A stretch of DNA of 64,000 nucleotides from a bacterium (GCA_030698885.1 JAUYLN010000020.1:7346-71345); one strand, 5' to 3'. Counted from the first letter of the stretch, positions 12,650-36,085 are shown. Made by a program: numbers and translations. The notes: generated by a model not told the origin, from the sequence alone.

Positions 12650-12690
12650 AGATTCCTGCCTGCCGGCAGGCAGGCGAATGCCATTTGTAT
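12650..12690. repeat. GC-rich palindrome CCTGCCTGCCGGCAGGCAGG, a REP-like family member
   Basis: Perfect 20-bp palindrome. The same motif occurs at 35958-35980 and variants at 31067-31086 and 28165-28200. Confidence 0.6.
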
Positions 12691-12727
12691 ATTGGCATCG
12701 CGTAGCGAGCAAAGCGAGCGAAAAAAA

Positions 12728-12970
12728 TCAGACCCGTGGGGCCTGATTACAGTAAGCTTTAAAAATTTTGATCAAAGATAAGACAATGACGATTCCTAAA
12801 AACATCTTAATGGCGCCGAGATTGAACCAAAATAGATCCACGTCGCAATACCATACTTTGGCCAGCCCATTATCGGTTTGGCATATGTTTTCCATAATAG
12901 TACGGAAGAGATTTTCAAATTTAAAATATAAAAATATACATACAGCAAAGATTATCAATGGTAGTCTCAT
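12728..12970 (-). CDS. Small two-TM hydrophobic protein encoded antisense inside the r-protein operon (cassette 1)
   Basis: Minus strand: SD GGGAGA then ATG. The product has two hydrophobic helices. Its ends are conserved with the cassette at 15304-15799. Confidence 0.4.
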   Translation of the reverse strand: MRLPLIIFAVCIFLYFKFENLFRTIMENICQTDNGLAKVWYCDVDLFWFNLGAIKMFLGIVIVLSLIKIFKAYCNQAPRV

Positions 12971-13050
12971 TATCATTCTCCCAGTTGTCAAAAATCAAAA
13001 CTGATGATATTCTATCACGACTAAGCTATGTGTCAAATTAGTGTTTTGGT

Positions 13051-13115
13051 CATTGGGATTTGGAGCTTATTTAGGAATTAGAAATTAGGATTTAGAAATT
13101 AGAAATTCAAAGTTT
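13051..13115. repeat. AT-rich tandem repeat (GGAATTAGAAATTAGGATTTAGAAATTAGAAATT) upstream of rpsS. A related block lies at 45947-46062.
   Basis: Direct repeats of (a)gaaattag/ggatttag are seen in the sequence. Confidence 0.5.
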
Positions 13116-13168
13116 TATTAAATAAGAATTGATAAATATATAAAAAACAGATATTAAACTAAACTAAC

Positions 13169-13513
13169 ATGAGCAGATCACTAAAGAAGGGTCCTTTCGT
13201 GGATCCGAAATTACTGAAAAAAATAGGCAAGTTAAGAGCCGGCGACAAGACGGTTATTAAAACGTGGTCGCGTGCGTCAACGATAACGCCTGAAATGGTG
13301 GGCTTTACCTTTGGCGTGCACAACGGCAGAATACATTTACCGGTATTTGTGACCGAAGATATGGTCGGCCATAAGCTTGGCGAATTTTCTTTAACAAGAA
13401 AATTCGTAAGGCATGGTGGCAAGATGCAGAAAGAAATAGAAATCGCAGCCAAGCAGAAAGAGATAGATGCCGCCAAAGCTGCCAAAGTTGAGCCGGAGGC
13501 ACCTAAGAAGTAA
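13169..13513 (+). CDS. rpsS: 30S ribosomal protein S19, with a Lys/Ala/Glu-rich C-terminal extension
   Basis: S19 core homology. Confidence 0.9.
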
Positions 13514-13594
13514 TCTACCAATTACGAATTACATAACTAATATACGAATAATAAATAGATTAGTATATTAGTGATTTTATTCGTAATTAGTAGA
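13514..13594 (+). repeat. Intergenic nested-palindrome element, copy D (rpsS->rplV)
   Basis: TCTACCAATTACGAATT...GATTAGTATATTAGTGATTTTATTCGTAATTAGTAGA. Confidence 0.85.
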
Positions 13595-13599
13595 AATTT

Positions 13600-14118
13600 A
13601 TGGAAGTCAAAGCAAGCTTAAACAATTTAAGAATAAATCCCAGAAAAGTAAGATTGGTGGCTAACCTCATAAGAGGGTTAGATTTTGAGCAGGCAAAAAA
13701 CCAGCTTAACTTTATGATAAAAAGATCATCAAGTCCTATCTCTAAACTTCTTGATTCCGCGGCCGCTAATGCTGAAAATAATTTTAATTTAATCAGGAGT
13801 AATCTTTATATAAAGGAAATAACCGTTAATGAGGGCCGTAAGCTTAAAAGATTTAAAGCTAAGGGATTCGGACGGGCAATGCCAATACAGAAAAAAACTT
13901 CGCATATAAATGTTGTATTTGATGAAAGGGTGCCCGGACTTAAGCAGGAAGTAAGAAGCAAAAAAGAGGAGCAAAAGAGCGAAGAAGCCATGGACCACAA
14001 TCATGAGCACAAAGAAGAACCGAAATTCAAGAAAGAGATTAAAACTGAATCAAGGCAAAAGCAGAGCGATTTATTCGGAGGATTAAAGAAGAGAATGTTT
14101 AGAAGAAAAAGCATTTAA
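13600..14118 (+). CDS. rplV: 50S ribosomal protein L22, with a ~60-aa charged C-terminal extension
   Basis: The N-terminal 110 aa match L22. Confidence 0.9.
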   Translation: MEVKASLNNLRINPRKVRLVANLIRGLDFEQAKNQLNFMIKRSSSPISKLLDSAAANAENNFNLIRSNLYIKEITVNEGRKLKRFKAKGFGRAMPIQKKTSHINVVFDERVPGLKQEVRSKKEEQKSEEAMDHNHEHKEEPKFKKEIKTESRQKQSDLFGGLKKRMFRRKSI

Positions 14119-14200
14119 TCTACCAATTACTAATTTTATACGAATATACCTATGAAAGGCTTGATTAGTATATTAGTGATTTAATTCGTAATTAGTAGAT
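14119..14200 (+). repeat. Intergenic nested-palindrome element, copy E (rplV->rpsC)
   Basis: TCTACCAATTACTAATTTTATACGAATATACC...GTATATTAGTGATTTAATTCGTAATTAGTAGAT. Confidence 0.85.
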
Positions 14201-14203
14201 AAC

Positions 14204-14830
14204 ATGGGACAAAAAATATCACCAACATCATTAAGGATAGGAATTAGCAAGGACTGGTTGTCCAAGTGGTTTGGCGGCCGCAGATATAAGGAGTTGCTTG
14301 CCGAAGATTTTAAAGTCAGAACGATGTTGGCTAAAAAATTAAAGAGCATGAGTGTTGACAGGGTAGAGATAGAAAGAAGCCCCGATACGTATGCTGTCAC
14401 AGTCTATACTGCCAGGCCGGGACTTATTATAGGAAGAAGCGGAACAGGCGTGGAAGATGTAAAAGAGCAGATTAAAAAGATACTTAGCCGTAAAACTAAC
14501 GTAAGATTAGATATCCAAGAATATAAAAACCCTGAAACCTCTGCCAAAATAATGGCAGAATCAATGTCGGAACAGATTGAAAGAAGACTTCCATTCAGAA
14601 GAATTATGAAGCAAACTTTAATAAAAATAGTAGCGAGCAGAGACGTTAAGGGAGCAAAGATACAGATGTCGGGAAGATTGAATGGCGCCGAAATTGCAAG
14701 AACGGAACATTTGGAGCAGGGTAGTTTGCCTTTACAGACTTTGCGGGCAGATGTTGATTATGCCAGGGTAACGGCTCACACCACTTATGGAACGATAGGC
14801 ATAAAAGTCTGGATATACCGGGTCTACTAA
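14204..14830 (+). CDS. rpsC: 30S ribosomal protein S3
   Basis: S3 KH-domain homology. Confidence 0.9.
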   Translation: MGQKISPTSLRIGISKDWLSKWFGGRRYKELLAEDFKVRTMLAKKLKSMSVDRVEIERSPDTYAVTVYTARPGLIIGRSGTGVEDVKEQIKKILSRKTNVRLDIQEYKNPETSAKIMAESMSEQIERRLPFRRIMKQTLIKIVASRDVKGAKIQMSGRLNGAEIARTEHLEQGSLPLQTLRADVDYARVTAHTTYGTIGIKVWIYRVY

Positions 14831-14897
14831 TTACTAATTTGATACGAATATACTAATCTATTTTTTTATTAGTATATTAGTGATTTTATTCGTAGAT
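14823..14897 (+). repeat. Intergenic nested-palindrome element, copy F (rpsC->rplP). Its 5' arm overlaps the last codons and stop of rpsC, and its 3' arm is shortened.
   Basis: ...GTCTACTAATTACTAAT... runs through the rpsC stop; it ends ...TTCGTAGAT-TATG. Confidence 0.7.
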
Positions 14898-14898
14898 T

Positions 14899-15303
14899 AT
14901 GTTACAACCGAAAAGAATAAAACATAGAAAAGTACACAAGAGAAGGATGCATACCGTCGCGAGAAGGGGCAGTTATTTGAGCTTTGGCAATTTCGGGTTA
15001 AAGGCTACTGAGCCGGCTTATATAAAATCATCCCAGATAGAGTCAGCAAGAAGAGCCATAGCCAAATCAATAAAACGCGGAGGTAAGGTATGGATAAGAA
15101 TATTTCCGGATAAACCGTTTACGGCCAAGGGCGCGGAAGTAGGCATGGGTGCCGGAGCCGGAAGTTTATCTCATTTCGTTGCGCCGATAGAAGCCGGAAG
15201 AATAGTATTTGAAATGGCCGGTGTTACGGAAGATGTTGCCAAGGAGGCATTGAGGTTGGCAGGACATAAACTGCCGGTGAAGACGAGGTTTATTAAAAAA
15301 TAG
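14899..15303 (+). CDS. rplP: 50S ribosomal protein L16
   Basis: L16 homology. Confidence 0.9.
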
Positions 15304-15424
15304 TCGCTCCGACCTATCTGGCTTTTGTTTGGGTCATGCGAATCAGGAAAAATAAGAAGAAGGTAATAAAAATCAGGCCGGTGGGGCCTGATTATAACAA
15401 GCTAGTTAGTTATGAATTTTCGGA

Positions 15425-15655
15425 TTATAGCTTTTTTCTCACGAATAAATATAGGAGGGTCATTATCACCATAGTTGAAAGATCAATAGCTAATACTTCA
15501 TTTGTATTTAGGTCACCATGGCCTATCCCATATCCGAATAGGCTGAAAACATCGAAATTATTTAAATTGGAATTAAATATATAGCAGTTTATGGTATGAA
15601 ATAATAAAAGTGTGGCCACTAAAAGAAATGATGTATCAAGATGTATCTTGGCCAT
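15425..15655 (-). CDS. Small two-TM hydrophobic protein encoded antisense inside the r-protein operon (cassette 2)
   Basis: Minus strand: ...TTGACAACTGGGGAGGTTTGT-ATG, with SD GGAGG 5 nt before the ATG. It lies downstream of a conserved promoter-like block and is followed by the aatcaggccggtggggcctgatt hairpin. Confidence 0.4.
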   Translation of the reverse strand: MAKIHLDTSFLLVATLLLFHTINCYIFNSNLNNFDVFSLFGYGIGHGDLNTNEVLAIDLSTMVIMTLLYLFVRKKL

Positions 15656-15720
15656 ACAAACCTCCCCAGTTGTCAAAAATTAAAACTAATGCTATAGTAT
15701 CACAACTATGAAAAGTCATA

Positions 15721-15795
15721 AAGCTCTAAGGCCGTATAGCTATAAAGCTTAAAAAAGCTCTATGGCTCTACAGCTTTATGGCTTTAAGACCATAA
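15721..15795. repeat. Short tandem-repeat block (AAGCTCTAAGGCCGTATAGC...AAGCTCTATGGCTCTACAGCTTTATGGC) immediately upstream of rpmC
   Basis: The motif family (GCCGTAAAGC / AAGCTCTATGGC) is shared with 16237-16305 and 24551-24622. Confidence 0.6.
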
Positions 15796-15799
15796 AAAT

Positions 15800-15985
15800 A
15801 TGAAGTACAGTGAATTACAAAATAAGGGTGCAGAAGAGTTAAATAAAATGCTGGAAGAGCTGAAGATTAAGCTTGGAGAAATGAAGTTTCAGGTTGCCAG
15901 CAATGCCCTCAAAAATACCAACGAAATGGGCGCTGTAAAAAAAGATATTGCCCGAATTTTAACTATAATGCAGCAAACCGAATAA
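15800..15985 (+). CDS. rpmC: 50S ribosomal protein L29
   Basis: 61-aa L29-like protein positioned between rplP and rpsQ. Confidence 0.8.
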
Positions 15986-15986
15986 T

Positions 15987-16235
15987 ATGGAAAATCAAAA
16001 TAAAAAAAATAGGGTTTTGAAGGGTGTAGTAGTATCGGATAAGATGCAGAAGACTGCCGTTGTTGAGGTCTCAAGACTTATTAAGCATCCGAAATACAAA
16101 AAATATCATAAGGTCAGTAAAAGATTTAAGGCTCAAAATGATGACAATAAATATAAGACGGGAGAGAGGGTGTTAATTCAGGAAACAAGACCGATATCTA
16201 AAGATAAAAGATGGATTGTTATTGCTAAGCAATAA
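15987..16235 (+). CDS. rpsQ: 30S ribosomal protein S17
   Basis: S17 OB-fold homology; the ATG overlaps the rpmC stop. Confidence 0.9.
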
Positions 16236-16236
16236 A

Positions 16237-16305
16237 GCGGTAGCCCTAAAGCCGTAAGCCGTAAAGCTTTAAAGCTCTATGGCCATATGGCTCTATGGCT
16301 TTATA
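16237..16305. repeat. Short tandem-repeat block (GCCGTAAAGC / AAGCTCTATGGC family) upstream of rplN
   Basis: agccctaaagccgtaagccgtaaagctttaaagctctatggccatatggctctatggc. Confidence 0.6.
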
Positions 16306-16307
16306 TC

Positions 16308-16673
16308 TTGATTCAGTTAAGAAGTATAGTAAATGTAGCTGATAATAGCGGAGCCAAAAGAGTTGGCGTTTTTAAGGTTTTAGGAGGTTCCAGAAAAAGA
16401 TATGCCAGAATAGGTGATATTGTGGTTGTGTCAGTAAAAGAAGCTGAGCCAGGAAAACAGGTTAAGAAAAAAGAAGTGGTTAAGGCCGTGGTTGTCAGAC
16501 AGAGAAGTAATTTCAGGAGAAAAGACGGAAGCTATATCAGATTTGATGAGAATGCGGTTGTTATATTGGACGGAATGAATCCCAAGGGTGGACGTGTTTT
16601 CGGTCCGATACCAAGAGAAATAAAAGAGAAAGGTTTTGATCAGATTGCAAGCTTAGCCCAGGAAATAATATAA
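16308..16673 (+). CDS. rplN: 50S ribosomal protein L14. A TTG start is inferred from the conserved M-I-Q N-terminus; the track ORF begins at 16287 inside the tandem repeat.
   Basis: ...[16 protein letters not shown]... L14 motif. Confidence 0.8.
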
Positions 16674-16763
16674 ATCTACCAATTACGAATTAGATACTAA
16701 TATACAAACAAGAAATAAAGAAATAGATTGGTATATTGGTGACCTGATTAGTAATTAGTAGGT
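16674..16763 (+). repeat. Intergenic nested-palindrome element, copy G (rplN->rplX)
   Basis: ATCTACCAATTACGAATTAGATACTAATATAC...GGTATATTGGTGACCTGATTAGTAATTAGTAGGT. Confidence 0.85.
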
Positions 16764-16766
16764 AAT

Positions 16767-17072
16767 ATGAATATAAGAAAAGGCGACAATGTAATAATGA
16801 GAGGCGGAAAAGACCGAAGAAAGACCGGAAAAGTTTTGGCTGTACTGACAAAAGAAAACAGGGTAGTTATAGAAGGGCTTAATACTGTAAAGAGACATCT
16901 TAAAGCAAGGAAGCAAGGCCAGAAGGGGCAGGTAATAAATAAAGAGAGAGCGGTACCTCTATCTACGGTGCAGCTTGTTTGCAGTAAATGCGGTAAGCGG
17001 ACAAGGGTGGGGATTCAAGTAAGCGGGGACAAGAAGATAAGAGTTTGTAAAAAATGCGGAGGAGAAATTTAG
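16767..17072 (+). CDS. rplX: 50S ribosomal protein L24, with a C-terminal Cys4 zinc ribbon (CSKC...CKKC)
   Basis: An N-terminal KOW domain typical of L24. The C-terminus carries CxxC-x14-CxxC in place of the usual tail. Confidence 0.85.
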   Translation: MNIRKGDNVIMRGGKDRRKTGKVLAVLTKENRVVIEGLNTVKRHLKARKQGQKGQVINKERAVPLSTVQLVCSKCGKRTRVGIQVSGDKKIRVCKKCGGEI

Positions 17073-17153
17073 GTTTACCAATTACGAATTAGATACTAAT
17101 ATACGAATCGGAGTTCATTGGTATATTGGTGACCTGATTAGTAATTAGTAGAT
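17073..17153 (+). repeat. Intergenic nested-palindrome element, copy H (rplX->rplE)
   Basis: GTTTACCAATTACGAATTAGATACTAATATACG...GTATATTGGTGACCTGATTAGTAATTAGTAGAT. Confidence 0.85.
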
Positions 17154-17157
17154 GACC

Positions 17158-17709
17158 ATGAAAGAACCAAGATTACTAACTAAATATAGAAAAGAAGTAG
17201 CCCCTGCAATGCAGGCTAAGTTTAGCTATAAAAGTGTTATGGCCATACCAAAGATAGAAAAAATAATCCTTAATGTAGGTACGGGCAAGGCTGCAGTCGC
17301 AAAAGAGCAAAAACTTATGGATAAGATTGAGCAAGATTTGACCAAGATAACCGGTCAGAAGCCCTCAGTTAGAAAATCCAAAAAATCTATTTCCGGATTC
17401 AAGGTTCGTGAAGGAATGGATGTCGGCAAGATGGTTACCTTGCGTGGCAGAAGAATGTATGATTTTATGGACAGGTTGATATCTGTAGCCCTTCCAAGGT
17501 CAAGGGATTTTCACGGCCTGGATGCAAAGTCTTTTGATAAAAGTGGTAATTTTAATATGGGCATAAAAGAACAAAATATTTTTCCGGAAGTTGCCTATGA
17601 ATCATTGAAGGATATATTTGGTTTGCAGATAACAGTTACAACTACAGCAAAGAATAAAGAAGAAGGCAGGGAGCTGTTGAGCCTAATAGGTTTTCCAATA
17701 AAAAACTAA
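17158..17709 (+). CDS. rplE: 50S ribosomal protein L5. An alternative start at 17152 is formed by the last bases of the repeat.
   Basis: L5 homology. Spacing after the element matches other copies if the start is 17158. Confidence 0.85.
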   Translation: MKEPRLLTKYRKEVAPAMQAKFSYKSVMAIPKIEKIILNVGTGKAAVAKEQKLMDKIEQDLTKITGQKPSVRKSKKSISGFKVREGMDVGKMVTLRGRRMYDFMDRLISVALPRSRDFHGLDAKSFDKSGNFNMGIKEQNIFPEVAYESLKDIFGLQITVTTTAKNKEEGRELLSLIGFPIKN

Positions 17710-17795
17710 TCTACTAATTACTAATAAAATCACTAATATACGAAATACGAATAAAAATCATTAGTATATTAGTATCTAATTCGTAATTGGTAGAT
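17710..17795 (+). repeat. Intergenic nested-palindrome element, copy I (rplE->rpsZ)
   Basis: TCTACTAATTACTAATAAAATCACTAATATACG...TTAGTATATTAGTATCTAATTCGTAATTGGTAGAT. Confidence 0.85.
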
Positions 17796-17798
17796 GAT

Positions 17799-17984
17799 AT
17801 GCCGAAAAAATCAACAATTGCAAGGTCAAACAAGAAGCCAAAGTTTTCCAGCCGAACTGTTCTCAGGTGTTTTATATGCGGGCGTAAGCATGGCTTTATG
17901 AGAAAGTTTGGATTGTGCAGGATACATTTTAGAGAATTGGCCGGTGAGGGGTTACTTCCCGGAGTAAAGAAGTCGTCATGGTAA
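17799..17984 (+). CDS. rpsZ: 30S ribosomal protein S14, type Z (zinc-binding, 61 aa)
   Basis: MPKKS...[25 protein letters not shown], a CxxC...C zinc motif. Start taken at the conserved MPKK. Confidence 0.85.
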
Positions 17985-18055
17985 TCTACCAATTACCAAT
18001 AAAATCACTAATATACTAAATTAGTAAATTCGTACCAAATTCGTAATTAGTAGAT
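17985..18055 (+). repeat. Intergenic nested-palindrome element, copy J (rpsZ->rpsH)
   Basis: TCTACCAATTACCAATAAAATCACTAATATAC...AAATTCGTAATTAGTAGAT. Confidence 0.85.
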
Positions 18056-18061
18056 GATAAT

Positions 18062-18457
18062 ATGTATACATTAGGTAATATGCTAATACAATTAAAAAAT
18101 GCTCAATCCGTAGGACACGGGAGAGTTTTGGTGCCATTCTCCAAAATGAATTTGGCAGTGATAACCCTGCTTAAAGACGGCGGATTCATAGATGGTTTTG
18201 AAAAGAAAAAAAGAAAATTGAAAAAAAGCGAAGTTAATTTTATTGATGTTAAGCTAAATAGTGATGACGGTAAAAAAATAAATAATATAAAACTGGTATC
18301 AAAGCCTTCAAGAAGAATGTATATAGGTAAAAAAGAAATAAGACCCGTTATGGAAGGACATGGTATGCTTGTGGTTACTACGCCAAGAGGAGTTATTTCT
18401 GGAGAGGAAGCAAAAAAACAGGGAGTAGGCGGAGAGGCATTGTTTGAGGTCTGGTAA
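18062..18457 (+). CDS. rpsH: 30S ribosomal protein S8
   Basis: S8 homology. Confidence 0.9.
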   Translation: MYTLGNMLIQLKNAQSVGHGRVLVPFSKMNLAVITLLKDGGFIDGFEKKKRKLKKSEVNFIDVKLNSDDGKKINNIKLVSKPSRRMYIGKKEIRPVMEGHGMLVVTTPRGVISGEEAKKQGVGGEALFEVW

Positions 18458-18527
18458 TCTACCAATTACCAATAAAATCACTAATATACTAATTAGTAAA
18501 TTCGTACCAAATTCGTAATTAGTAGAT
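18458..18527 (+). repeat. Intergenic nested-palindrome element, copy K (rpsH->rplF), near-identical to copy J
   Basis: TCTACCAATTACCAATAAAATCACTAATATACTAATTAGTAAATTCGTACCAAATTCGTAATTAGTAGAT. Confidence 0.85.
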
Positions 18528-18532
18528 GATAC

Positions 18533-19078: not shown

Positions 19079-19093
19079 ACTAAAAATAATATT

Positions 19094-19441: not shown

Positions 19442-19475
19442 AACTAAGCCATAGGCAATAAGTTGTACGATTTTC

Positions 19476-19508
19476 TTACAGCTTACAGCTTACAGCTTAC
19501 AGCTTTAG
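19476..19508. repeat. Heptamer tandem repeat (CAGCTTA) x ~4.5 between rplR and rpsE
   Basis: cttacagcttacagcttacagcttacagcttta, seen directly. Confidence 0.7.
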
Positions 19509-20101: not shown

Positions 20102-20105
20102 AATT

Positions 20106-20567
20106 ATGCAGTTACATCAATTAAAACCATCAGGAAGCAATAAAAAGCGCAAACGAGTGGGCCGAGGCGGAAGCCGCGGTACTTATTCTGGCCGTGGCCA
20201 GAAAGGACAGAAATCAAGAGCCAGCACTTCAATAAGGCCTGATTTTAGGGGTGGAAGCGTACCACTTTGGAAAATATTTGGTAAAAAAAGAGGCTCAAGC
20301 AAAAAGGTTGATATAAAACACAGAGCGTTTAGAATAAGGAATAAGAAGCCTATCGTTGTTAAGCTGTCCCAGCTGAATCACTTTTTTAAAGATGGCGATA
20401 CGGTTACATTAAAAAATGTTATAAAGGCCGGACTGGCCGATAAATCCGGGGCCGGTATTAAAATTTTAAGCAACGGCGAGATAACAAAGAAGTTAAATTT
20501 TGTCAGATTGCCTATGTCGGCATCAGCAAAAAATAAAGTTACAGCTGCCGGAGGCACCGTCAAATAG
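20106..20567 (+). CDS. rplO: 50S ribosomal protein L15. There is no L30 gene between S5 and L15.
   Basis: MQLHQLKPSGSNKKRKRVGRGGSRG..., the L15 N-terminus. Only 4 nt separate it from the rpsE stop. Confidence 0.85.
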   Translation: MQLHQLKPSGSNKKRKRVGRGGSRGTYSGRGQKGQKSRASTSIRPDFRGGSVPLWKIFGKKRGSSKKVDIKHRAFRIRNKKPIVVKLSQLNHFFKDGDTVTLKNVIKAGLADKSGAGIKILSNGEITKKLNFVRLPMSASAKNKVTAAGGTVK

Positions 20568-20649
20568 ATTTACCAATTACCAATAAAATCACTAATATAC
20601 AAATAAGAAATGGATTCGTATATTAGTACCAGATTAGTAATTAGTAGAT
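20568..20649 (+). repeat. Intergenic nested-palindrome element, copy L (rplO->secY)
   Basis: ATTTACCAATTACCAATAAAATCACTAATATAC...GTATATTAGTACCAGATTAGTAATTAGTAGAT. Confidence 0.85.
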
Positions 20650-20653
20650 AATC

Positions 20654-23607: not shown

Positions 23608-24570
23608 ATGAGCAAAAATATGAAAAAGCAAATATTTCATCTTTATTTCAATGATGATTTTGACGGTGTAAGTTCGGCGGCCTTGTTTTCTTATTTTGTG
23701 AACAAAAAATGGCCCGGAAAATATAAGTTCAAGTATAATTTGGCGGTTTTTAAGCCGGGATATCAGAAGGAGTGGATTGGTAAAAAACTACCGGAGCCTT
23801 CAGCTGTTTTTGATTTTCGTTATCATCCGGATGCGGGGTGGTGGTTTGATCATCATGAGTCGAGTTTTATTTACGAATCACAAAAGAAAAATTTTAAAAA
23901 TACTGCCCAAAAAGCTTGGGACAAAAACCGTAAATCATGTTGTAGCTTAATTTTAAATCATCTGTCGGGCTATTTTAATTTTGAGTTTCCGGGTTATTTA
24001 AAAGAGCTTGCCAAAGAAGCAGATATTATTGATTCTGCCGGTTATAAATCTGCTAAGGAAGCCCTGGAGCCCAAAGAATCGGCTATAAAATTGAGCAACA
24101 TACTTCCGCTGGGCTTCAGCACTAAAGATGCAAAGGCGTGGATTGAAAGCTTAGCCTCTGGTCCGATGTCTGAAGTGATGAAATTAGATTTAACGAAGAA
24201 GAGAATGTTAAAAGCTGAAAGAATCATAAGTAAGGCCATTGAAGAAGCAAAAAATTTTTCAAAAGTCATCGGCGACACAGTCTTTTTGCCCGGGGGCAGG
24301 ATATTCAGCAGATTTGCCGTTTATTTAGTATATCCAAAAGCATATTATGCAGTGATAGTAAGCGATGTGGGGGAGTATTACCACATCGGGGCAGGCAAGA
24401 ATCCTTGGCTTGAAGTCAGGGACCAGAAAGATATTTCTGAAGTAATGAAAAAATTCGGCGGAGGAGGCCATGTCAATGTCGGTGCGACAGAAGTTAAGAC
24501 AAAGAAAGAAGCTTTACAAATTGCAGAAAAAGTGGTAGAAATATTGAACAGTAAAGCCGTAAAGCTGTAA
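23608..24570 (+). CDS. DHH/DHHA1-family phosphoesterase (NrnA-like)
   Basis: DGVSSAAL..., FDHHES (the DHH motif) and GGGGH (the DHHA1 GGGH motif). Confidence 0.55.
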   Translation: MSKNMKKQIFHLYFNDDFDGVSSAALFSYFVNKKWPGKYKFKYNLAVFKPGYQKEWIGKKLPEPSAVFDFRYHPDAGWWFDHHESSFIYESQKKNFKNTAQKAWDKNRKSCCSLILNHLSGYFNFEFPGYLKELAKEADIIDSAGYKSAKEALEPKESAIKLSNILPLGFSTKDAKAWIESLASGPMSEVMKLDLTKKRMLKAERIISKAIEEAKNFSKVIGDTVFLPGGRIFSRFAVYLVYPKAYYAVIVSDVGEYYHIGAGKNPWLEVRDQKDISEVMKKFGGGGHVNVGATEVKTKKEALQIAEKVVEILNSKAVKL

Positions 24571-24622
24571 GCCGTAAAGCCGTAAAGCTCTATGGCCGTA
24601 AAGCTCTATGGTCTCATAGCTT
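24551..24622. repeat. Short tandem-repeat block (GCCGTAAAGC / AAGCTCTATGGC family) upstream of the sugar-transferase gene
   Basis: gtaaagccgtaaagctgtaagccgtaaagccgtaaagctctatggccgtaaagctctatggtctcatagc. Confidence 0.6.
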
Positions 24623-26006
24623 GAGGCGTTCTGATTTAATCTTCAACGTAATATTGGTCCCGGTTGATTTTGCTATGCTGGCTCTTGCCGGCATAACTAC
24701 CTATCTTCTGCGCACAGAGATACTGACGGCTTTCAGGCCGGTTCTTTTTGAATTTAACCTGCCCTTTGAAAAGTATATTTTCCTGGCGCTTGGCGTGGCG
24801 GGTTTTTTTGTGGTTGTTTATGCTATATCCGGGCTGTATAACATCGGAGGCCCCAGGAATATTCTGGAAGAGTTTTTCAAGGTAGTTATTGCCTCGTCTG
24901 CGAGCATAATGACTATAATCGTTTATATATTCTTAAGGCAGGAACTTTTTGATTCCAGATTTCTAGTTCTTGGCGCATGGTTTTTTTCTATCATTTTTGT
25001 TTCACTGGGAAGGCTTATCGTGAGGCAGGTTCAGAAGAGTCTCGTTTCTAAACTTGATTACGGAATTCATAAAGTGCTTGTCATTGGCAATGACGATATA
25101 TCTTTCAAAATAATTAACGGCATGAATGACAACCACTCTCTGGGCTATAGGGTGGTTAAACAGCTTGTGAATCCGGAAGTGTCAGAAGTTAAGCTGGCTA
25201 TAGGCAATCCGGGCATAGACGAAGTGATTCTGGCTAATCCTAACTATCCTCAAGATAAAGTAGTTGAGATTGTAGATTTTTGCCATGAGAACCATCTTGT
25301 TTTCAAATTTGTTCCTAATATTTATCAGACTTTAACCGCAAATGCTTCAGCCGAAGCATTTGCCGGGGTGCCCTTAATTGAGCTTAGGAGGACTGCTCTA
25401 GACGGCTGGGGAAGCGTAGTTAAAAGACTGGTAGATGTTTTTGCTTCTGCGCTGGGCTTGATAATTCTATCGCCTTTGTTTTTGATTATAGCTTTTGCCA
25501 TTAAGTGGGAAACAGCCGGTCCGGTTTTTGTAAGACTTGAAAGAGTCAGCAGGAACAAAAGGTTTCAGTTGCTAAAGTTCAGGTCAATGATAAATAATGC
25601 GGATAAGTATAAGGAGATGCTCAAAGAAATGAATGAGCGTTCAGACGGCCCGCTTTTCAAAATGCGTTTTGATCCGCGCGTGACAAGAATTGGAAGATTC
25701 ATAAGGCGCACCAGAATAGATGAACTGCCTCAACTTTGGAATGTTTTGAGGGGGGAGATATCATTGGTTGGGCCAAGACCTCATGAGCCGTCAGAAATAG
25801 ATAAATACCAGAAGCATCACCGGAAAGTTCTGGCCTTAAAAGCCGGGGCTACGGGACTGGCCCAGATATCGGGCAGTTCTGATTTACCATTTGAAAAAGA
25901 AGTTGCCTTGGACACTCTTTATATTGAAAAATGGTCTCTATCTCAAGATATTAAAATTATCATTAGAACTGCCATCAAAATGTTCCGTGACCACTCGGCG
26001 GTTTGA
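24621..26006 (+). CDS. Polyprenyl-phosphate sugar phosphotransferase (WbaP/WcaJ 'bacterial sugar transferase' family). The start is uncertain.
   Basis: The C-terminal domain ...ISLVGPRPHEP...DTLYIEKWSLSQDIKII... with N-terminal TM helices. Confidence 0.75.
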   Translation: MRRSDLIFNVILVPVDFAMLALAGITTYLLRTEILTAFRPVLFEFNLPFEKYIFLALGVAGFFVVVYAISGLYNIGGPRNILEEFFKVVIASSASIMTIIVYIFLRQELFDSRFLVLGAWFFSIIFVSLGRLIVRQVQKSLVSKLDYGIHKVLVIGNDDISFKIINGMNDNHSLGYRVVKQLVNPEVSEVKLAIGNPGIDEVILANPNYPQDKVVEIVDFCHENHLVFKFVPNIYQTLTANASAEAFAGVPLIELRRTALDGWGSVVKRLVDVFASALGLIILSPLFLIIAFAIKWETAGPVFVRLERVSRNKRFQLLKFRSMINNADKYKEMLKEMNERSDGPLFKMRFDPRVTRIGRFIRRTRIDELPQLWNVLRGEISLVGPRPHEPSEIDKYQKHHRKVLALKAGATGLAQISGSSDLPFEKEVALDTLYIEKWSLSQDIKIIIRTAIKMFRDHSAV

Positions 26007-27209: not shown

Positions 27210-27266
27210 TTTAATCCTGGTATATTATAAATAAGTTTATAGGTCTTTTAAAAAAGAGGGCACGGA

Positions 27267-28001: not shown

Positions 28002-28275
28002 CGCAGTCGGTGGTTTTAAATTTGATAAGCTGGCTCTAGATAGAAGATATTGGCTAGAGAGCGGAGATTCATCCCGTACGAAGTAGCTTGAATACAACCT
28101 TAAACAAAACTGTTTGTACTGCAAAGCTAAGTATTAACTTGTTGTCAGGGCTTTGAAATCTAACCTGGCAGGCAGGGATACTTCGTCCGGGATTCATCCA
28201 CAACTCTGCCGGCACAATTAAGAGTATAATTAAAGAGTGCCCGCAAAAAATAATATTTGGAGGGCTGTGTTTGAT

Positions 28276-30933: not shown

Positions 30934-31166
30934 AGGCCATACGCTAAATTCCGGAGCCACAAAGATAAAGTGGCTTTCCGTAATTTAGCCACAGCGATTC
31001 CTCCGCCATGTGGCTTCGCTAAAGCGTAGCTGGCGGATGAACCTTCGACGAGAGGGTTTGCCCAATTTCCCTGCCTGTGGCAGGCAGGTTCGTTATCCCG
31101 CCATGGCGGGATGCCTCGAACTTGGCCAAACGTAAGGCCTCTATACAAAACAACTTTAATAAGTAG
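30934..31166. repeat. GC-rich structured intergenic island with several hairpins and a CCTGCCTGtGGCAGGCAGG palindrome
   Basis: GC content is much higher than the surroundings. Stems include ccgccatggcggg, tccgcca/tggcgga and AGGCC...GGCCT ends. Confidence 0.5.
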
Positions 31167-32783
31167 ATGGACATATCATCTTCAAAAATTTCATCTGGAA
31201 TTTTTCGCGGCAGCATAACGCTGGCCGTTTTTTCTTTGGTGTCGCGCCTGACCGGTCTTCTGCGGGACCGTATTCTGGCCGGGCGTTTTGGCGCCGGGGA
31301 AACTCTGGATATTTATTATGCCGCATTCAAAATTCCTGATTTCATATTCCACCTGGTGATTATCGGTGCTGTTTCCGCGGCCTTTATTCCTACATTTATA
31401 AATTATTATGAACGGGACAAAAATGAAGGCTGGAGGCTGGCGAGTAATTTTTTAAATACCGCTCTTTTCTTTGTGATAACCGCTTCGCTTATTTTAATAA
31501 TTTTTATCCCGGATTTAATGCCTCTGGTAGCGCCGGGATTTGGACCTTTGCAAACAGCTTATGCCGTAGACCTGACGAGGATTATGTTTTTGAGTCCGGT
31601 TATTTTTGCCATTTCAACTGTTTTGGGTTCCATTCTTCAGTCTTTAAGAAGATTTCTGGCTTTTGCCATTGCCCCTTCTTTCTATAATTTTGGAATTATT
31701 TTCGGAGCTTTATATCTTGAGCCCAGTCTTGGCCTCTCCGGTCTTGGCTGGGGAGTTATCATCGGAGCATTGCTCCATCTTCTGATACAGCTTCCGGCGG
31801 TATTTAGGGCGGGATTCAGGTGGTTTGCTGTTTTTGATTTTGCCGACTCCGGTTTAAGAAAGGTTTTTAAGTTAATGATGCCAAGAACTTTAGGCCTTGC
31901 TGTAACTCATATAAATCTGATAATTATTACGGCTATAGCATCAACCATAACAGTTGGCAGCATATCTATTTTTAATTTCGCCAATAATCTCCAGTTCCTG
32001 CCCATTTCAATGATAGGCGTTTCAATATCTATTGCTATTTTTCCGACGCTGTCCTCTTTATCGGGTCGGGATAATGAAGCTTTTATCAATGATTACTTGA
32101 GCGCTATGAAGCAAATAATATTTTTTGGCGTGCCTGTATCTTTTGCCATGTTTATTTTTAGAGAACCGATAGTGGCTCTTTTGCTTGGGGTTGGCAGGTT
32201 CGGCCCCGAAGATATAGGGCTGACTGCTGCCGCGGTAGGTATTTTCGCATTCAGTGCGTTAGCCATATCTCTCGTATCTCTGATTAATAGAGCATTTTAT
32301 GCTTTTCATAATACGGTTATCCCCTTAGTTGTCGGTGCTATTTCTGTTTCCCTTAATATAGTCTTATCATTTTTGCTTGTGGGCTGGTTTAAGATTGAAG
32401 AATTTTCTTTGTTCTGGCAAAAAATTCTTGGAGTTAGCGATGGTCCTGCATTTTCCATAATAGGCTTGGCGCTTGCCTGGAGCCTTTCTCATGTTCTGTA
32501 TTCTGTTTTAATCCACCTAAAATTTATAAAATTTGCCGGTATTAAAAAATCCGGTATCTGGCAATATATGAGCAAAACGATAGGCGCCTCCCTATTGTCT
32601 TGTGGTATATTAATTTTTGCCCTCCCGTATATTCCAAAAATATCTGTTTTATCCGGTTTTGTTTCTCAGTTTCTTTCGCTTTCATTGGATGTATTGATTT
32701 TCGGAATTATGGCCTTTGTTTTTTGCAGGATATTCGGAATTAAGGAAGCAGTTATTCCCTCGCGATTTCTTAGGAGGGTTTAG
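31167..32783 (+). CDS. murJ: Lipid II flippase MurJ (MviN)
   Basis: 14-TM protein with an N-terminal ...LTGLLRDRILAGRFGAGETLDIYYAAFKIPDF... MurJ signature. Confidence 0.75.
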   Translation: MDISSSKISSGIFRGSITLAVFSLVSRLTGLLRDRILAGRFGAGETLDIYYAAFKIPDFIFHLVIIGAVSAAFIPTFINYYERDKNEGWRLASNFLNTALFFVITASLILIIFIPDLMPLVAPGFGPLQTAYAVDLTRIMFLSPVIFAISTVLGSILQSLRRFLAFAIAPSFYNFGIIFGALYLEPSLGLSGLGWGVIIGALLHLLIQLPAVFRAGFRWFAVFDFADSGLRKVFKLMMPRTLGLAVTHINLIIITAIASTITVGSISIFNFANNLQFLPISMIGVSISIAIFPTLSSLSGRDNEAFINDYLSAMKQIIFFGVPVSFAMFIFREPIVALLLGVGRFGPEDIGLTAAAVGIFAFSALAISLVSLINRAFYAFHNTVIPLVVGAISVSLNIVLSFLLVGWFKIEEFSLFWQKILGVSDGPAFSIIGLALAWSLSHVLYSVLIHLKFIKFAGIKKSGIWQYMSKTIGASLLSCGILIFALPYIPKISVLSGFVSQFLSLSLDVLIFGIMAFVFCRIFGIKEAVIPSRFLRRV

Positions 32784-32912
32784 ACAGGGCCTTTTTTTGT
32801 TTTACGGCAGATGTTATGGTTATCGGATTATTGGTTCAAATAAGTCAATAATGATTAACGCGTTTGGCCCTCCATGAGCGGAGGAGCTCTACGGCGAAAG
32901 CATATAAGCCAC

Positions 32913-34706
32913 ATGGAAAATATAAGAAATTTCGTAATTATAGCTCATATAGACCACGGCAAATCCACTTTAGCGGACAGGTTTTTAGAGTTGACCGGAA
33001 CTGTGGAGAAAAGGCAGATGCAAGAACAATATCTGGACCAGATGGAGCTTGAGCGCGAGCGGGGAATAACCATCAAGCTACAGCCTGTACGAATGAGCTA
33101 CTCACTACACACTACCAACTACCAACTAAATCTGATTGATACTCCAGGTCACGTTGATTTTTCATACGAAGTCTCGCGCTCCTTAGCCGCAGTTGAAGGA
33201 GCAGTTTTACTCGTCGATGCCACTAAAGGTATTCAGGCCCAGACTCTTGCTAATTTTAATTTTGCCCGAGAACAGGGGCTGGTTATAATTCCGGTCATTA
33301 ATAAGGTTGATTTGCCCAATGCCAGAGTTTCCGAAGTTGAGGAAGAAATAAAAAACCTTTTAAATTCAGAAGCTAAAATTTTTAAAATATCGGCAAAGAC
33401 AGGCGAGGGTGTGGCGGATATTTTAGAAGAAGTGATAAGACTGGTTCCGCCTCCATCCGGTAATAAATATCAGGAAGATACCGGCGACAGATTCAGGGCT
33501 GTAATTTTTGATTCTGATTTTGACAGCTACAAGGGAGTTATCGCTTTTGTGAGGGTTTTTGGAGGCAGACTGAAAGCCGGCCAGCAAATATCTTTTTCGG
33601 CGGCAAAAGCCAGAAGTTCGGTAGTTGAGGTGGGTTACTTTATGCCTCTCTTAACCAAGGCAGATTCCATAGAAGCAGGTCAGATAGGATATATAGCCAC
33701 GGGCCTTAAAGATCCGGCTACGGTCAGGGTGGGCGATACTGTGGGCATATGGAATGAACCGGTTGAGGCTTTGCCGGGATACAAAGAGCCCCGGCCGATG
33801 GTATTTGCAAGTTTTTATCCGGAAGCCGGAGATGACTATGACTCGCTCAAAGATGCATTGTCCAAAGTTAAATTAACGGATGCTTCGTTAAGTTATGAAC
33901 CTGAATCTTCTCCAGGCCTTGGCAGGGGATTTCGGCTTGGGTTTTTAGGTATGCTTCATATTGAAATAGTGAGCGAAAGGCTTCATCGCGAGCATAAGCT
34001 GGGGCTTATCATAAGTACGCCATCGGTGGAATATCATGTTGTACAAAAAAACGGAAAGGTGGCAGTAATAAGGTCCGCTTCTGCCATGCCTGACCCGAGT
34101 TATATAGAAAAAATAGAAGAACCGATGGTTTTGCTTGAAATTTTAAGTCCGGCTTCTTATCTTGGTTCTCTGATGAATCTGTTGGCGGAATTAAGAAGCC
34201 AATATTTGGATACGGATTATATCGGCAAAGAGATAGTGGTGCTTAAATATAAAGTTCCGTTGGCGGAAATTGTAACTGATTTTTATGACAAACTAAAAAG
34301 CATCAGTTCGGGCTATGCCTCAATGAGCTACGAACCCTCTGAATATCAGCATTCAGATTTGGTTCGGTTGGATATTTTAGTTGCCGGCGACCCGGTTGAG
34401 CCGTTTGCCAAAATTGTGCCTAGAGAGAAGGCGCATAACGAAGGCAAGAACATTGTGGAGCGGCTTAAAAAGGTCATTCCGCCTCAGCTGTTCGTGGTTG
34501 CCTTGCAGGCGGCCATAGGGGGCAAGATTATTGCCCGTGAATCAATAAGCGCGAAGCGCAAGGACGTTACCGGGTATTTATACGGTGGAGATATTACCAG
34601 AAAGAAGAAGTTATTGGAAAAGCAAAAACGGGGCAAAAAGAAGATGAAAGAAATCGGCAAAGTTAATATTCCACAAAAAGTGTTTTTGGAGATGTTGAAG
34701 AGATAG
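32913..34706 (+). CDS. lepA: Elongation factor 4 (LepA)
   Basis: MENIRNFVIIAHIDHGKSTLADR... and a LepA C-terminal domain. Start set at the conserved Met (the track ORF starts at 32874). Confidence 0.9.
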   Translation: MENIRNFVIIAHIDHGKSTLADRFLELTGTVEKRQMQEQYLDQMELERERGITIKLQPVRMSYSLHTTNYQLNLIDTPGHVDFSYEVSRSLAAVEGAVLLVDATKGIQAQTLANFNFAREQGLVIIPVINKVDLPNARVSEVEEEIKNLLNSEAKIFKISAKTGEGVADILEEVIRLVPPPSGNKYQEDTGDRFRAVIFDSDFDSYKGVIAFVRVFGGRLKAGQQISFSAAKARSSVVEVGYFMPLLTKADSIEAGQIGYIATGLKDPATVRVGDTVGIWNEPVEALPGYKEPRPMVFASFYPEAGDDYDSLKDALSKVKLTDASLSYEPESSPGLGRGFRLGFLGMLHIEIVSERLHREHKLGLIISTPSVEYHVVQKNGKVAVIRSASAMPDPSYIEKIEEPMVLLEILSPASYLGSLMNLLAELRSQYLDTDYIGKEIVVLKYKVPLAEIVTDFYDKLKSISSGYASMSYEPSEYQHSDLVRLDILVAGDPVEPFAKIVPREKAHNEGKNIVERLKKVIPPQLFVVALQAAIGGKIIARESISAKRKDVTGYLYGGDITRKKKLLEKQKRGKKKMKEIGKVNIPQKVFLEMLKR

Positions 34707-34893
34707 TACTCGGCCAGCCATAGTTTTTAATTTTCGTTTCACTCGCGGGTAAATAATATTGTAATTTTCTCATTTTCCTAGATAAAAAACTGGTTCCCGT
34801 TCCGACCAGTTTTTTATTACGTAAAATCTCAAAAATTACAATTTATTTACGGCCACTCGCTCAAATAAATTAAAAACTTTGGCTGGCCTCGTT
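34707..34893. mobile_element. MITE-like element: ~60-bp terminal inverted repeats (34710-34768 / 34833-34891) flanking a terminator-like core hairpin (34784-34816)
   Basis: TIR-R is the reverse complement of TIR-L with few mismatches. A solo TIR copy lies at 41921-41980. Confidence 0.6.
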
Positions 34894-35251
34894 CTAGTTT
34901 TACGGCTATATAATTGCCTCAGTTATTTTTTTGCCGATTTCCGAAGGTGGTGAGGTGGGGGGATAGGATAGCCCCCGCCGTTTTTAGCGGGAGCCACTAT
35001 ACAAACGGCTCAACGATAATTATCGTTGAGCCGTTTGTGGTTAACCGAGGGCCGCTCTCGTTAATTTTTACGTATAGTCTACAGCTTACTGTTTATAGCT
35101 GTTATACTATTAATAAAAGGCGGGCCTGCCTACCGAAGTTTTATACGAAGGCGGGGAGAATTAGAAGTAGAACAAAAGAAACTATCGTCAAGACAGCGAT
35201 AATTATTCCGAACCAGCGCACGAATTTTTTATTGCCGATAACCATAGATGA

Positions 35252-35332
35252 TCTACTAATTACTAATTTCATACTAATATACTAATCTATTTCTTATTCG
35301 TATATTAGTGATTTTATTAGTAATTGGTAGAT
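35252..35332 (+). repeat. Intergenic nested-palindrome element, copy M (upstream of the ftsB-like gene)
   Basis: TCTACTAATTACTAATTTCATACTAATATAC...GTATATTAGTGATTTTATTAGTAATTGGTAGAT. Confidence 0.8.
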
Positions 35333-35357
35333 AAACGATAAGTTTCATTATATCCTT

Positions 35358-35720
35358 ATGAACAAACTTTTTCAATCACCGCTCCTGACTGTGCCCCTGA
35401 TTTTAATCATGGGATTTTTGCTTTTGCAGATAATAAAAATAAATCCCGAAAAATCCGACCTGGACAAAAAAGTAGCTAATCTTGAGGGACAGATAAGTAA
35501 ACAGGAGCAGTTGCTGCAAGAACTTGAGAAAGAAGCTGACTATTACCAAAGTGATAGCTATAAAGAAAGACAGGCCCGTATCAGATTGAACTATAAAAAG
35601 CCCGGCGAAAAAGTGATACTAGTTTATGACAGTCCGGTTGATGTGGAGAAGCAGGCTTCAAAATCCGAAGAGGCATTGCCATTTTGGAGAAATTGGCTAG
35701 AATATTTATTCGGAGAATAA
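35358..35720 (+). CDS. Septum-formation initiator FtsB/DivIC-like protein
   Basis: N-terminal TM segment, a coiled coil, and ...KERQARIRLNYKKPGEKVI..., which resembles the FtsB/DivIC C-terminal motif. Confidence 0.5.
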   Translation: MNKLFQSPLLTVPLILIMGFLLLQIIKINPEKSDLDKKVANLEGQISKQEQLLQELEKEADYYQSDSYKERQARIRLNYKKPGEKVILVYDSPVDVEKQASKSEEALPFWRNWLEYLFGE

Positions 35721-35763
35721 TCTTATATATTGCGAGAAGCAGGCCGTAGCTCGCAGAGCGTAG

Positions 35764-35834
35764 GCGGGTGTGGTTCAATGGTAGAATGCGACCTTCCCAA
35801 GGTTGAGACGAGGGTTCGATTCCCTTCACCCGCT
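35764..35834 (+). tRNA. tRNA-Gly (anticodon CCC)
   Basis: Cloverleaf with GCGGGTG acceptor, D-arm GTTCAATGGTAGAAT, anticodon loop TT-CCC-AA, T-arm GGGTTCGATTCCC, and discriminator T. No CCA is encoded. Confidence 0.8.
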
Positions 35835-35837
35835 CAT

Positions 35838-35873
35838 AAACTAAAAAGTGCCCAAAGGGGCACTTTTTAGTTT
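35838..35873 (+). terminator. Hairpin terminator after tRNA-Gly (aaactaaaaagtgccc-aaa-gggcactttttagttt)
   Basis: 16-bp stem followed by a T-rich tail. Confidence 0.6.
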
Positions 35874-35876
35874 ATA

Positions 35877-36085
35877 GGGGGAAGCAAGCAAGTGGTCCTG
35901 CTTGTGTAGGGTATCGAACGCCGGAGCGATGTTGTGAGCGAATTGGGCGCGAATAACCCTGCCTGCCGGCAGGCAGGCGTGAGGCGGTGCCCAGACCGAG
36001 GTGAGCGACCGGCGAGCCGAGAGTCGAGGGAGATTCCCTTCGCTCGCTCCAAATAAAAACCCCGCGAAAGCGGGATTTATTATGG
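35877..36085. repeat. GC-rich island containing CCTGCCTGCCGGCAGGCAGG. It is either a candidate structured ncRNA or a REP-cluster; it ends at a small GC hairpin (cccgc-gaaa-gcggg) with flanking A/T runs.
   Basis: A ~200-nt GC-rich segment in an AT-rich genome immediately after a tRNA and its terminator. The ORF-track minus-strand ORFs here look spurious. Confidence 0.4.

Follow-up and report, generated by a model that had tools for sequence, protein, structure and literature searches.

Short GC-rich palindromes that form hairpins and lie dispersed in intergenic DNA are known as repetitive extragenic palindromic (REP) sequences, bacterial interspersed mosaic elements (BIMEs), and REP doublets forming hairpins (REPINs). 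A sequence-only reading of the bacterial DNA analyzed here (GCA_030698885.1, JAUYLN010000020.1:7346-71345; hereafter the window, meaning the whole stretch of 64,000 nucleotides) had proposed either such a family or a family of structured noncoding RNAs for four islands, numbered 1 to 4, between positions 12,650 and 36,085. Our subjects are the 20-nucleotide (nt) palindrome CCTGCCTGCCGGCAGGCAGG, which we named PAL, and an RNA element linked to a transfer RNA (tRNA) gene, of which island 4 is a copy. PAL has the features of REP sequences just listed; however, REPs are imperfect, end in a GTAG-type motif, and are lineage-specific, high-copy, often paired and extragenic, whereas PAL is perfect, cross-phylum, solitary, without a conserved flank, and also present in RNA and coding genes.

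Three other kinds of small palindromic element invite comparison. The GC clusters of yeast mitochondria are mobile, GC-rich palindromic elements of 30-50 bp, organelle-specific and family-diverse, that land in spacers, in RNA genes, and occasionally in coding regions. They and PAL are both GC-rich palindromic mini-elements in a lower-GC genome, but PAL is one exact 20-mer found in many phyla. [quoted passage not shown] MITEs have terminal inverted repeats around an internal segment, show target-site duplications, and are far longer than 20 bp (PMC10969869), whereas PAL consists of two abutted 10-nt arms, 20 nt in total, and its clean insertions in the RNA family and in tRNA fragments come without duplication. 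Rickettsia palindromic elements (RPEs), of about 150 bp and several families, are confined to Rickettsia; they are palindromic and lie in frame in unrelated protein genes, to which they add a conserved peptide (PMC10969869), as PAL adds LPAGRQ in GatB, FtsK, S6, and RfbB. PAL differs from RPEs in its length of 20-21 nt and its cross-phylum distribution, and the window contains no coding insertion.

The island 4 element calls two further systems to mind. Islands that integrate into tRNA genes leave displaced tRNA 3′ fragments at their attachment (att) sites, seen as a direct repeat from the T-loop to the 3′ end beside an intact tRNA. The element shares this T-loop-to-3′ direct repeat next to an intact tRNA, but it is only about 150-190 nt long, has no integrase, and holds a covarying RNA structure between the repeats. 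Like the tRNA-like domain of transfer-messenger RNA (tmRNA), it has a T-stem-like helix running into a tRNA 3′ acceptor strand, with a complementary 5′ acceptor strand in a subset; in contrast to tmRNA, it has no ARAGORN or Rfam match and no tag reading frame, an extra domain emerges from the T-loop position, and most copies are without the 5′ acceptor strand. We consider it probable that two things are superimposed in the window, namely PAL as a discrete 20-nt unit and island 4 as a PAL-bearing tRNA-linked RNA.

PAL in the window, in genomes, and in viruses

The four islands are not one repeat family; their common element is this GC palindrome only, and islands 1-3 are unrelated local hairpin clusters that merely hold PAL or its relics. 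We masked PAL and compared the islands by BLAST with the context of the others and with roughly 2 Mb of fetched loci; homology appeared for island 4 alone (to locus L039). A covariance model of the island 4 RNA found no second copy in the window (next-best E = 0.2). A single family was rejected on both counts. The genes named as context by the sequence-only reading are correct (rplB upstream, DUF4012 and MurJ downstream, tRNA-Gly(CCC) at 35764-35835). That reading had supposed an AT-rich genome, but the window, with a GC content of 41.2%, is not very AT-rich; and the description of the islands as GC-rich suits islands 3 and 4 (cores of 0.59 and 0.63) but not islands 1 and 2 (0.41 and 0.425 in 200-nt windows). 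Its proposed shared flank gcccaatt/aattgggc occurs at chance level, with 6 matches against 4.4 expected. The PAL-related sequences of the window, none with an assigned strand, are as follows.

12655-12674: PAL copy 1, a perfect 20-nt palindrome (exact match), alone in the convergent spacer between rplB and a small reverse open reading frame (ORF)
28164-28177: possible decayed PAL remnant in island 2, CCT+GGCAGGCAGG+G, on weak evidence (exact half-site at 28167-28176)
31070-31088: PAL variant CCTGCCTG-TGG-CAGGCAGG with the central CCGG altered, in the island 3 hairpin cluster upstream of murJ (half-site match, hairpin fold)
35958-35977: PAL copy 2 (exact match), inserted as 20 nt into the tRNA-linked RNA with '..AAC' (where helix P2 ends) before it and 'CGUGAGG' (helix P-beta) after it

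PAL is thus present in the window twice in intact form and once mutated, with a remnant as a possible fourth instance. Two exact matches compare with 0 expected from 100 shuffles, and the half-site GGCAGGCAGG, allowing at most one mismatch, is enriched (11 matches against 2.7 expected). Both perfect copies had already been noticed, the first with a start (12657) that needed correction; the 19-nt variant placed near 31067 also exists, at the position listed above. The variants claimed for 28165-28200 in island 2 come down to the half-site and a separate CTGCCGGCA about 30 nt away. A further exact half-site lies at 57776-57785 in a coding region (YLGRQGG) and is either chance or a relic of an old in-frame PAL. 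Copy 1 folds as an isolated 8-bp hairpin. Neither intact copy is followed by a U-run or T-run, and terminator scans flag other hairpins instead; a role for PAL as an intrinsic terminator was rejected because its GC hairpin has no directly following U-run.

Outside the window, at least 120 genome loci from many bacterial phyla carry exact PAL. Within the candidate phyla radiation (CPR) the hosts include Parcubacteria, Saccharibacteria, WWE3, Daviesbacteria, and Uhrbacteria, and elsewhere they include Bacteroidota, Omnitrophota, Planctomycetota, Thermodesulfobacteriota, Verrucomicrobia, and others. Cultured Bacteroidota (Winogradskyella, Flagellimonas, Longitalea, Flavivirga, and Aquiflexum) are among the carriers, as are complete or megabase-scale assemblies. 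Viral contigs contributed another 35 loci with exact PAL, whereas three control palindromes, alike in composition or design, gave no viral match (0 each). A search that fixed the 8-bp stem and allowed any loop gave 56 viral matches, of which 42 had the CCGG center and most of the others were one base off; single-base loop variants are the commonest non-CCGG forms of PAL in viral contigs. Conversely, fixing the inner 16-mer recovered the flanking CC...GG in 42 of 55 matches, and conservation ends at position 20: the base at position -1, just outside PAL, was G in 18, A in 16, C in 6, and T in 2. The flanks of 163 PAL copies contained no conserved tetranucleotide of the GTAG type, only a weak preference for A at -1 and T at +1.

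Apart from L039, the flanks of different loci look unrelated. We also considered PAL as the tip of a longer hairpin and rejected this, as flank-to-flank pairing came to 7.9 pairs against 7.0 in controls, despite striking single cases. Most of the fetched public loci have one PAL copy in 8 kb; PAL lies within longer local repeats in some viral contigs, and one PAL is nested within another in L018 and L042. No strain variation was seen at rplB/PAL, where the sole other contig, from an independent Logan assembly, is 100% identical. Our literature search found no paper with the PAL 20-mer or the peptide LPAGRQ.

Other short GC palindromic words also recur across unrelated genomes. The word TCCGCCAGCTGGCGGA was seen in 7 loci (L011, L016, and five other PAL loci), and further examples are CCCGATAGCTATCGGG and the pair GTCATTGCGAGGAGCG...CGACGAAGCAATC, in loci that include L186, L049, and L091. 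Genomes may thus share a larger vocabulary of hairpins, of which PAL would be the extreme case. In addition, the window has intergenic arrays with an 8-nt period, built of AAAGCCGT, AAAGCTCT, and ATGGCCGT words, at 15712-15784, 16234-16319, and 24547-24632, and comparable arrays of 7-8-nt words flank PAL elsewhere, for example in L050, L058, and L101.

A tRNA-linked RNA family with island 4 as a copy

The RNA family to which island 4 belongs covaries, is linked to tRNA genes, and is absent from Rfam; the island 4 copy carries PAL. The parts of the unit, all on the plus strand, are listed below; PAL copy 2 interrupts the core.

35764-35835: tRNA-Gly(CCC), the partner tRNA (ARAGORN, Rfam)
35837-35876: long terminator-like hairpin in the spacer between tRNA and element (from sequence and alignments; comparable hairpins lie in the spacers of other members)
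35884-35905: hairpin H0, immediately before P1 (minimum-free-energy fold; the L168 homologue is GAAGCAAGCAAatgaTTTTGCTTGC; also present in other members)
35907-36041: three-way-junction RNA core with helices P1, P-alpha, P-beta, P2, P-gamma, and P3 (covariance model R1)
35914-35932: invariant 19-mer TCGAACGCCGGAGCGATGT, comprising the 3′ part of the P1 5′ strand and the 5′ strands of P-alpha and P-beta
35933-35957: degenerate or expanded P2 region before PAL, alignable with the 'long P2' type seen in L039 and L181, its clean stem lost
35995-36024: hairpin P3 with two tandem G.A/A.G motifs (CGAG/CGAG), replaced by A-U in AU-type members
36032-36052: P1 3′ strand and tRNA-like tail, in which GATTCCCTTC repeats tRNA-Gly positions and the remainder has diverged
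36061-36074: terminator-like hairpin CCCGC-GAAA-GCGGG closing the unit, flagged on both strands by the terminator scan

The family was first noticed through the homology of L039 in the flanks of PAL. It was collected with the exact 19-mer, which matched at least 120 metagenome loci, including about ten chance matches in GC-rich coding DNA; among the matches listed, 78 distinct copies pass the family filter, and the family counts below refer to these. Model R1 was built from 60 other members, with the window copy left out, and nevertheless recovers it at full length with a score of 66.5 bits (E = 5.7e-15) and a 47-nt insert at P2. The suggestion of a structured noncoding RNA of about 200 nt after tRNA-Gly is therefore supported, and its closing hairpin is present as described. 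A Rfam 15 scan of the window at gathering thresholds returned two tRNAs only, E-value scans of island 4 and a typical family member gave nothing credible, and twelve family loci gave tRNAs only. ARAGORN detected no tmRNA in the window. These nulls agree with the earlier failure to fit tmRNA, signal recognition particle (SRP) RNA, or 6S RNA to island 4, and no Rfam family can be assigned to it. In the literature, we found no paper describing an RNA motif downstream of tRNAs in CPR bacteria.

The alignment and RNAalifold define a three-way junction closed by P1, with one arm formed by P-alpha, P-beta, and P2 and the other by P-gamma and P3, and with H0 preceding it. In 60 sequences, the 38-pair structure is 89.5% paired, compared with 33-42% when the partners are slid; its covariation is 0.427 against at most 0.127 for slid partners, and 25 pairs have changed on both sides. 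The columns of the 19-mer are invariant in alignments A2 and A3. G.U pairs exceed A.C pairs (56 versus 26) and the tandem G.A motifs are found on the tRNA strand only, indicating that the tRNA strand is also the RNA strand. A second subfamily (L180, L188, L255, L258, and L270) has the same 19-mer, P1, and adjacency to a tRNA and a different interior (GAGGAAGUAUGACGAACGAGUGAGGUGUGUCCCGCGGCAC...). All members known are from CPR (Patescibacteria) genomes or unclassified metagenome contigs.

The association with tRNA genes is close and extends to sequence. In 62 of the 78 members, the 19-mer has a tRNA on its strand whose end lies 21-84 nt upstream, with 31 anticodon types represented; in the window the distance is 78 nt, and tRNA-Gly is preceded by a promoter-like site at 35676-35703. 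The 3′ strand of P1 and the sequence that follows it repeat the tRNA from C56 of the T-loop to the 3′ end, and the 5′ strand of P1 equals the 5′ strand of the T-stem plus the complement of T-loop positions 56-60. The direct repeat measures at least 12 nt in about 47 of the 78 members, 54 nt in L168, and up to 88 nt where the unit is tandemly amplified, as in L189; in the window it is the 10-nt GATTCCCTTC, at 35818-35827 in tRNA-Gly and again at 36032-36041. The variable base of P1 covaries with T-loop position 59 (AU 22, UA 17, CG 6, and GC 6). Contig L182 has two near-identical cores, the P1 of each matching its own tRNA. In 8 of 41 members scanned, as well as in L192 and L158, H0 is directly preceded by a 5′ acceptor strand with complementarity to the 3′ tail.

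No conserved protein family, and no integrase, was found within 4 kb on either side of the element. We looked for a protein gene tied to the RNA family and rejected the candidates, as only spurious ORFs overlapping the element cluster. The arrangement LepA...DivIC, tRNA-Gly(CCC), element is found in the window and again in L168/L254 and in L189, where LepA is about 72% identical, and this shared synteny shows the locus to be vertically inherited. For annotation, PAL and the tRNA-linked RNA account for GC-rich islands and for spurious ORFs, such as 35841-36236 on the minus strand, beside tRNA genes.

PAL as a clean insertion, rival explanations, and a tentative model

PAL is a specific, cross-phylum 20-nt unit that occurs as a clean insertion. 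Within the RNA family it is missing from 66 of 69 aligned members, including L168 and L189, the syntenic orthologues of the window element. It lies between P2 and P-beta in the window and in L039, and between P-gamma and P3 in L207; each time it is exactly 20 nt long and without a duplicated flank. Among the 155 PAL loci listed, the RNA family occurs only in L039 and L084 (Candidatus Yanofskybacteria). From these comparisons, the PAL of island 4 is a lineage-specific insertion and not a defining part of the RNA. Partial tRNA copies in L015, L037, L085, and L099 also contain PAL, which splits their D-loop at an identical position and without duplication. Partial 5′ tRNA copies with PAL inside lie just upstream of an intact tRNA in L106 (3650-3800), L030 (3600-3790), and L015 (4020-4165), and a GIY-YIG-like ORF comes after the copy in L106.

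Long ORFs with PAL read it in frame as x-LPAGRQ-x in 7 of 9 cases, which include GatB, FtsK, ribosomal protein S6, and RfbB, and in RfbB PAL coincides with an insertion of 7-8 residues relative to PDB 1g1a. These reading frames imply that the insertions in proteins are of 21 nt. The converse idea, that removing PAL would restore reading frames, was discarded, because long ORFs read through PAL in frame. Target-site duplication was likewise rejected, direct repeats being seen at only 6 of 163 copies, some of them in tandem-word contexts, as was the idea that PAL halves are the ends of a longer insertion sequence (IS), there being no IS-sized or paired half-site arrangement.

The proposal that the islands are REP/BIME (REPIN)-type, genome-specific extragenic palindromes mobilized by a REP-associated tyrosine transposase (RAYT) encoded elsewhere in the genome could draw on the GC-rich palindrome in intergenic DNA, on a GTAG three bases upstream of PAL copy 1 ('cgtagatt'), on the enrichment of half-sites in the window, and on the longer local repeats that include PAL in some viral contigs. 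We nevertheless judge it very unlikely: REPs are lineage-specific and the identical 20-mer is found in many phyla, the flanks of 163 copies share no tetranucleotide, the half-sites form no IS-sized or paired arrangement, the two intact copies of the window are unpaired and 23 kb apart in 64 kb, and PAL occurs also in structured RNAs and in frame in proteins. A single family of four structured noncoding RNA copies, with PAL as a conserved helix, gains some credit from the folding of islands 1, 3, and 4, which is better than that of shuffles, but is barely credible given that the covariance model and the PAL-masked BLAST single out island 4, that most members of its family are without PAL, and that island 2 is unstructured. 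We regard as quite improbable a PAL that does not move and is a functional hairpin (protein-binding site, RNA stabilizer, or terminator), independently arisen or retained in many lineages. The hairpin is very stable and often intergenic, and other palindromic words such as TCCGCCAGCTGGCGGA recur across loci; yet conservation of the loop and of the exact limits at 20 nt goes far beyond structural need, matched palindromes are absent, no U-run follows, the contexts have no gene or position in common, and an operator or terminator would not show up as an insertion in conserved RNAs, in tRNA fragments, and in the loops of proteins. There is next to no chance that the insertions are artefacts of sequencing or assembly: metagenome-assembled genomes make up most of the carriers, but cultured isolates have PAL as well, as do complete or megabase-scale assemblies, mutated variants exist, coding copies keep the frame and nearly always give LPAGRQ, and an independent Logan assembly reproduced the rplB/PAL region at 100%.

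For the tRNA-linked element, the alternative is that it is a DNA site and not a functional RNA, that is, the scar (attR plus arm) of integrase-mediated integration into the tRNA T-loop. The direct repeat from C56 to the tRNA 3′ end is what is seen at tRNA att sites, many different tRNAs are involved, and the unit is tandemly amplified in L189. This explanation is unlikely in light of the 25 compensatory pairs, the G.U bias, and the strand-specific tandem G.A motifs; moreover, the gap between tRNA and core is only 21-84 nt, neither an integrase nor another conserved neighbor gene is present, and genomes whose LepA is 72% identical have retained the element in synteny.

In the two-part explanation that we favor, it is as a sequence that PAL would be propagated, rather than through selection for its shape alone. 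It might be spread by a copy-and-insert process that is sequence-specific and acts in trans, and it would persist where an extra hairpin is tolerated: in intergenic spacers, at RNA helix junctions, in the loops of tRNA fragments, and, as 21 nt, in variable protein loops. The window element, which is vertically inherited, would have acquired PAL at the P2/P-beta junction. Since the element ends in a copy of the tRNA from T-loop to 3′ end, P1 could mimic an extended T-stem. For the RNA we infer one of two natures: an element without ORFs that recognizes the T-loop and in this way copies itself to tRNA genes, or a tRNA-like, minihelix-bearing RNA processed by the tRNA machinery. The 31 tRNA types, the near-identical copies within one genome, and the tandem amplification fit the mobile-element alternative, while syntenic retention and strong structural constraint are compatible with both.

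A bolder model, which we put forward tentatively and as an outside possibility, is that of an ORF-less mobile RNA homing to tRNA genes with the 5′ strand of P1 (GGGA-N-TCGAAC) as a guide complementary to the T-loop and T-stem of the target, and, separately, of PAL as a cross-phylum, sequence-specific insertion unit, a 20-nt 'nano-element' that would write hairpins into DNA, including RNA and protein genes. A guide role would account for the way in which N follows T-loop position 59, even where a genome has two copies that are nearly identical, and insertion by homing would leave an intact tRNA and a copied 3′ end.

Several points weigh against the two-part explanation. The direct repeat with the tRNA also resembles an att site made by a recombinase. 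Flanking direct repeats of 5-8 nt at 6 of 163 PAL copies could hint at a transposase-like process, which otherwise left no trace, and no enzyme or mechanism for the insertion of PAL was identified. The window copy of the RNA has mismatches in P1, a degenerate P2, and a diverged tail, and may be decaying. Collection by the exact 19-mer also sets bounds to the sampled diversity of the family and to its host range, CPR.

If PAL is the unit that it seems to be, it would be the smallest and most widely distributed dispersed repeat known to us; it would imply an insertion activity not yet assigned and could serve as a marker for phyletic profiling. The tRNA-linked RNA is widespread in CPR genomes and in groundwater and sediment metagenomes, with covariation support on a par with that of many curated Rfam families. 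Its linkage to tRNAs suggests a new tRNA-targeting mobile RNA or a new tRNA-like RNA, and it offers a testable handle on the RNA biology of the rarely cultured CPR bacteria.

Islands 1-3 and other features of the window

Island 1 lies in a convergent spacer, in which the rplB stop codon is followed by a Y-shaped repeat, next by several hairpins including PAL, and then by the terminator of the small reverse ORF. The features of islands 1 and 3 apart from PAL, all on the plus strand, are the following.

12451-12562: Y-shaped structured repeat of 110 nt (repeat family D15), not related to PAL, just after the rplB stop codon
12705-12719: GCGAGC-AAA-GCGAGC hairpin with tandem G.A pairs (GCGAGCaaaGCGAGC)
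30943-31139: island 3, made up of four or five hairpins, with the DUF4012 gene on one side and murJ on the other (folds with z = -3.9 and -2.9)

A second copy of the Y-shaped repeat, at about 41795-41899 after fusA, has the same architecture and different outer-stem sequences; the folds reach z = -6.5 (rplB copy) and -7.2 (fusA copy). The outer stem, conserved in pairing, encloses the hairpins CGCC-UGCU-GGCG and GC(A/G)C-CGUC-G(U/C)GC, whose loops on the opposite strand (AGCA and GACG) are those of P2 and P3 in the tRNA-linked RNA. The agcgagc motif of the sequence-only reading is real in the form of GCGAGCaaaGCGAGC, the only such match in the window (0.01 expected). This hairpin is the same building block as the P3 apex, and its tandem G.A pairs are read by analogy with P3.

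In the S10 operon, about 720 nt separate rplB from rpsS and so split their junction. The gap contains the small reverse ORF (12728-13036, minus strand), which encodes a hydrophobic protein of 87 residues with no Pfam match and has a strong, near-consensus promoter, TTGACA-16-TAGAAT (13036-13009), and a terminator (12748-12726). A repeat at 12980-13023 is seen again at 15665-15708, beside another small reverse ORF.

Island 2 shows no excess of folding over shuffles (z = +0.6 and -0.4, with -0.4 for the half-site region). Island 3 has no Rfam match and, PAL itself apart, no homologue in the 2 Mb of fetched loci. In the closest contigs (L168, L254, and L189), the gene order differs from that of the window at islands 2 and 3.

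AT-rich palindromic repeats of 80-95 nt fill nearly every short gap among the ribosomal-protein and neighboring genes, at these positions.

First part: 10263-10338, 10993-11079, 11479-11598, 13506-13600, 14111-14205, 14815-14901, 16667-16768, 17066-17170, 17709-17797
Second part: 17976-18056, 18454-18529, 20560-20653, 35238-35337, 38618-38711, 39113-39206, 42872-42966, 43966-44041, 46537-46629

The left arm starts at the stop codon (TAA TCTACCAATTAC...) and the right arm stops short of the next ATG by a few bases (...GTAATTAGTAGATaacATG). For two examples, the folds have z = -6.1 and -4.4. There is no visible Shine-Dalgarno-like sequence. A hairpin that joins stop and start codons in this way suggests a role in coupling, processing, or insulation.

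At 60984-61425 (plus strand) lies a bacterial class A RNase P RNA with extra insertions. Its score of 91.3 bits is below the Rfam gathering score of 100, hence its absence from the default scan, and it explains the GC-rich stretch at 60980-61148. Five consecutive genes at 54425-58745 have a near-identical leader (AAGTATTAAGGGATAAGTAGTAAGTATTAAGC followed by ATG) and N-terminus (MNTKTKNNQ.GGF), and the array looks like one of pilin-like proteins. A 60-nt repeat, 93% identical, is found downstream of lepA (34832-34891) and of fusA (41921-41980) and may serve the genes after it as a common promoter or leader. Finally, an inverted repeat at 53035-53090 and 53142-53197, with 56-nt arms that are 75% complementary and a 51-nt spacer, overlaps the start of an ORF at 53121.

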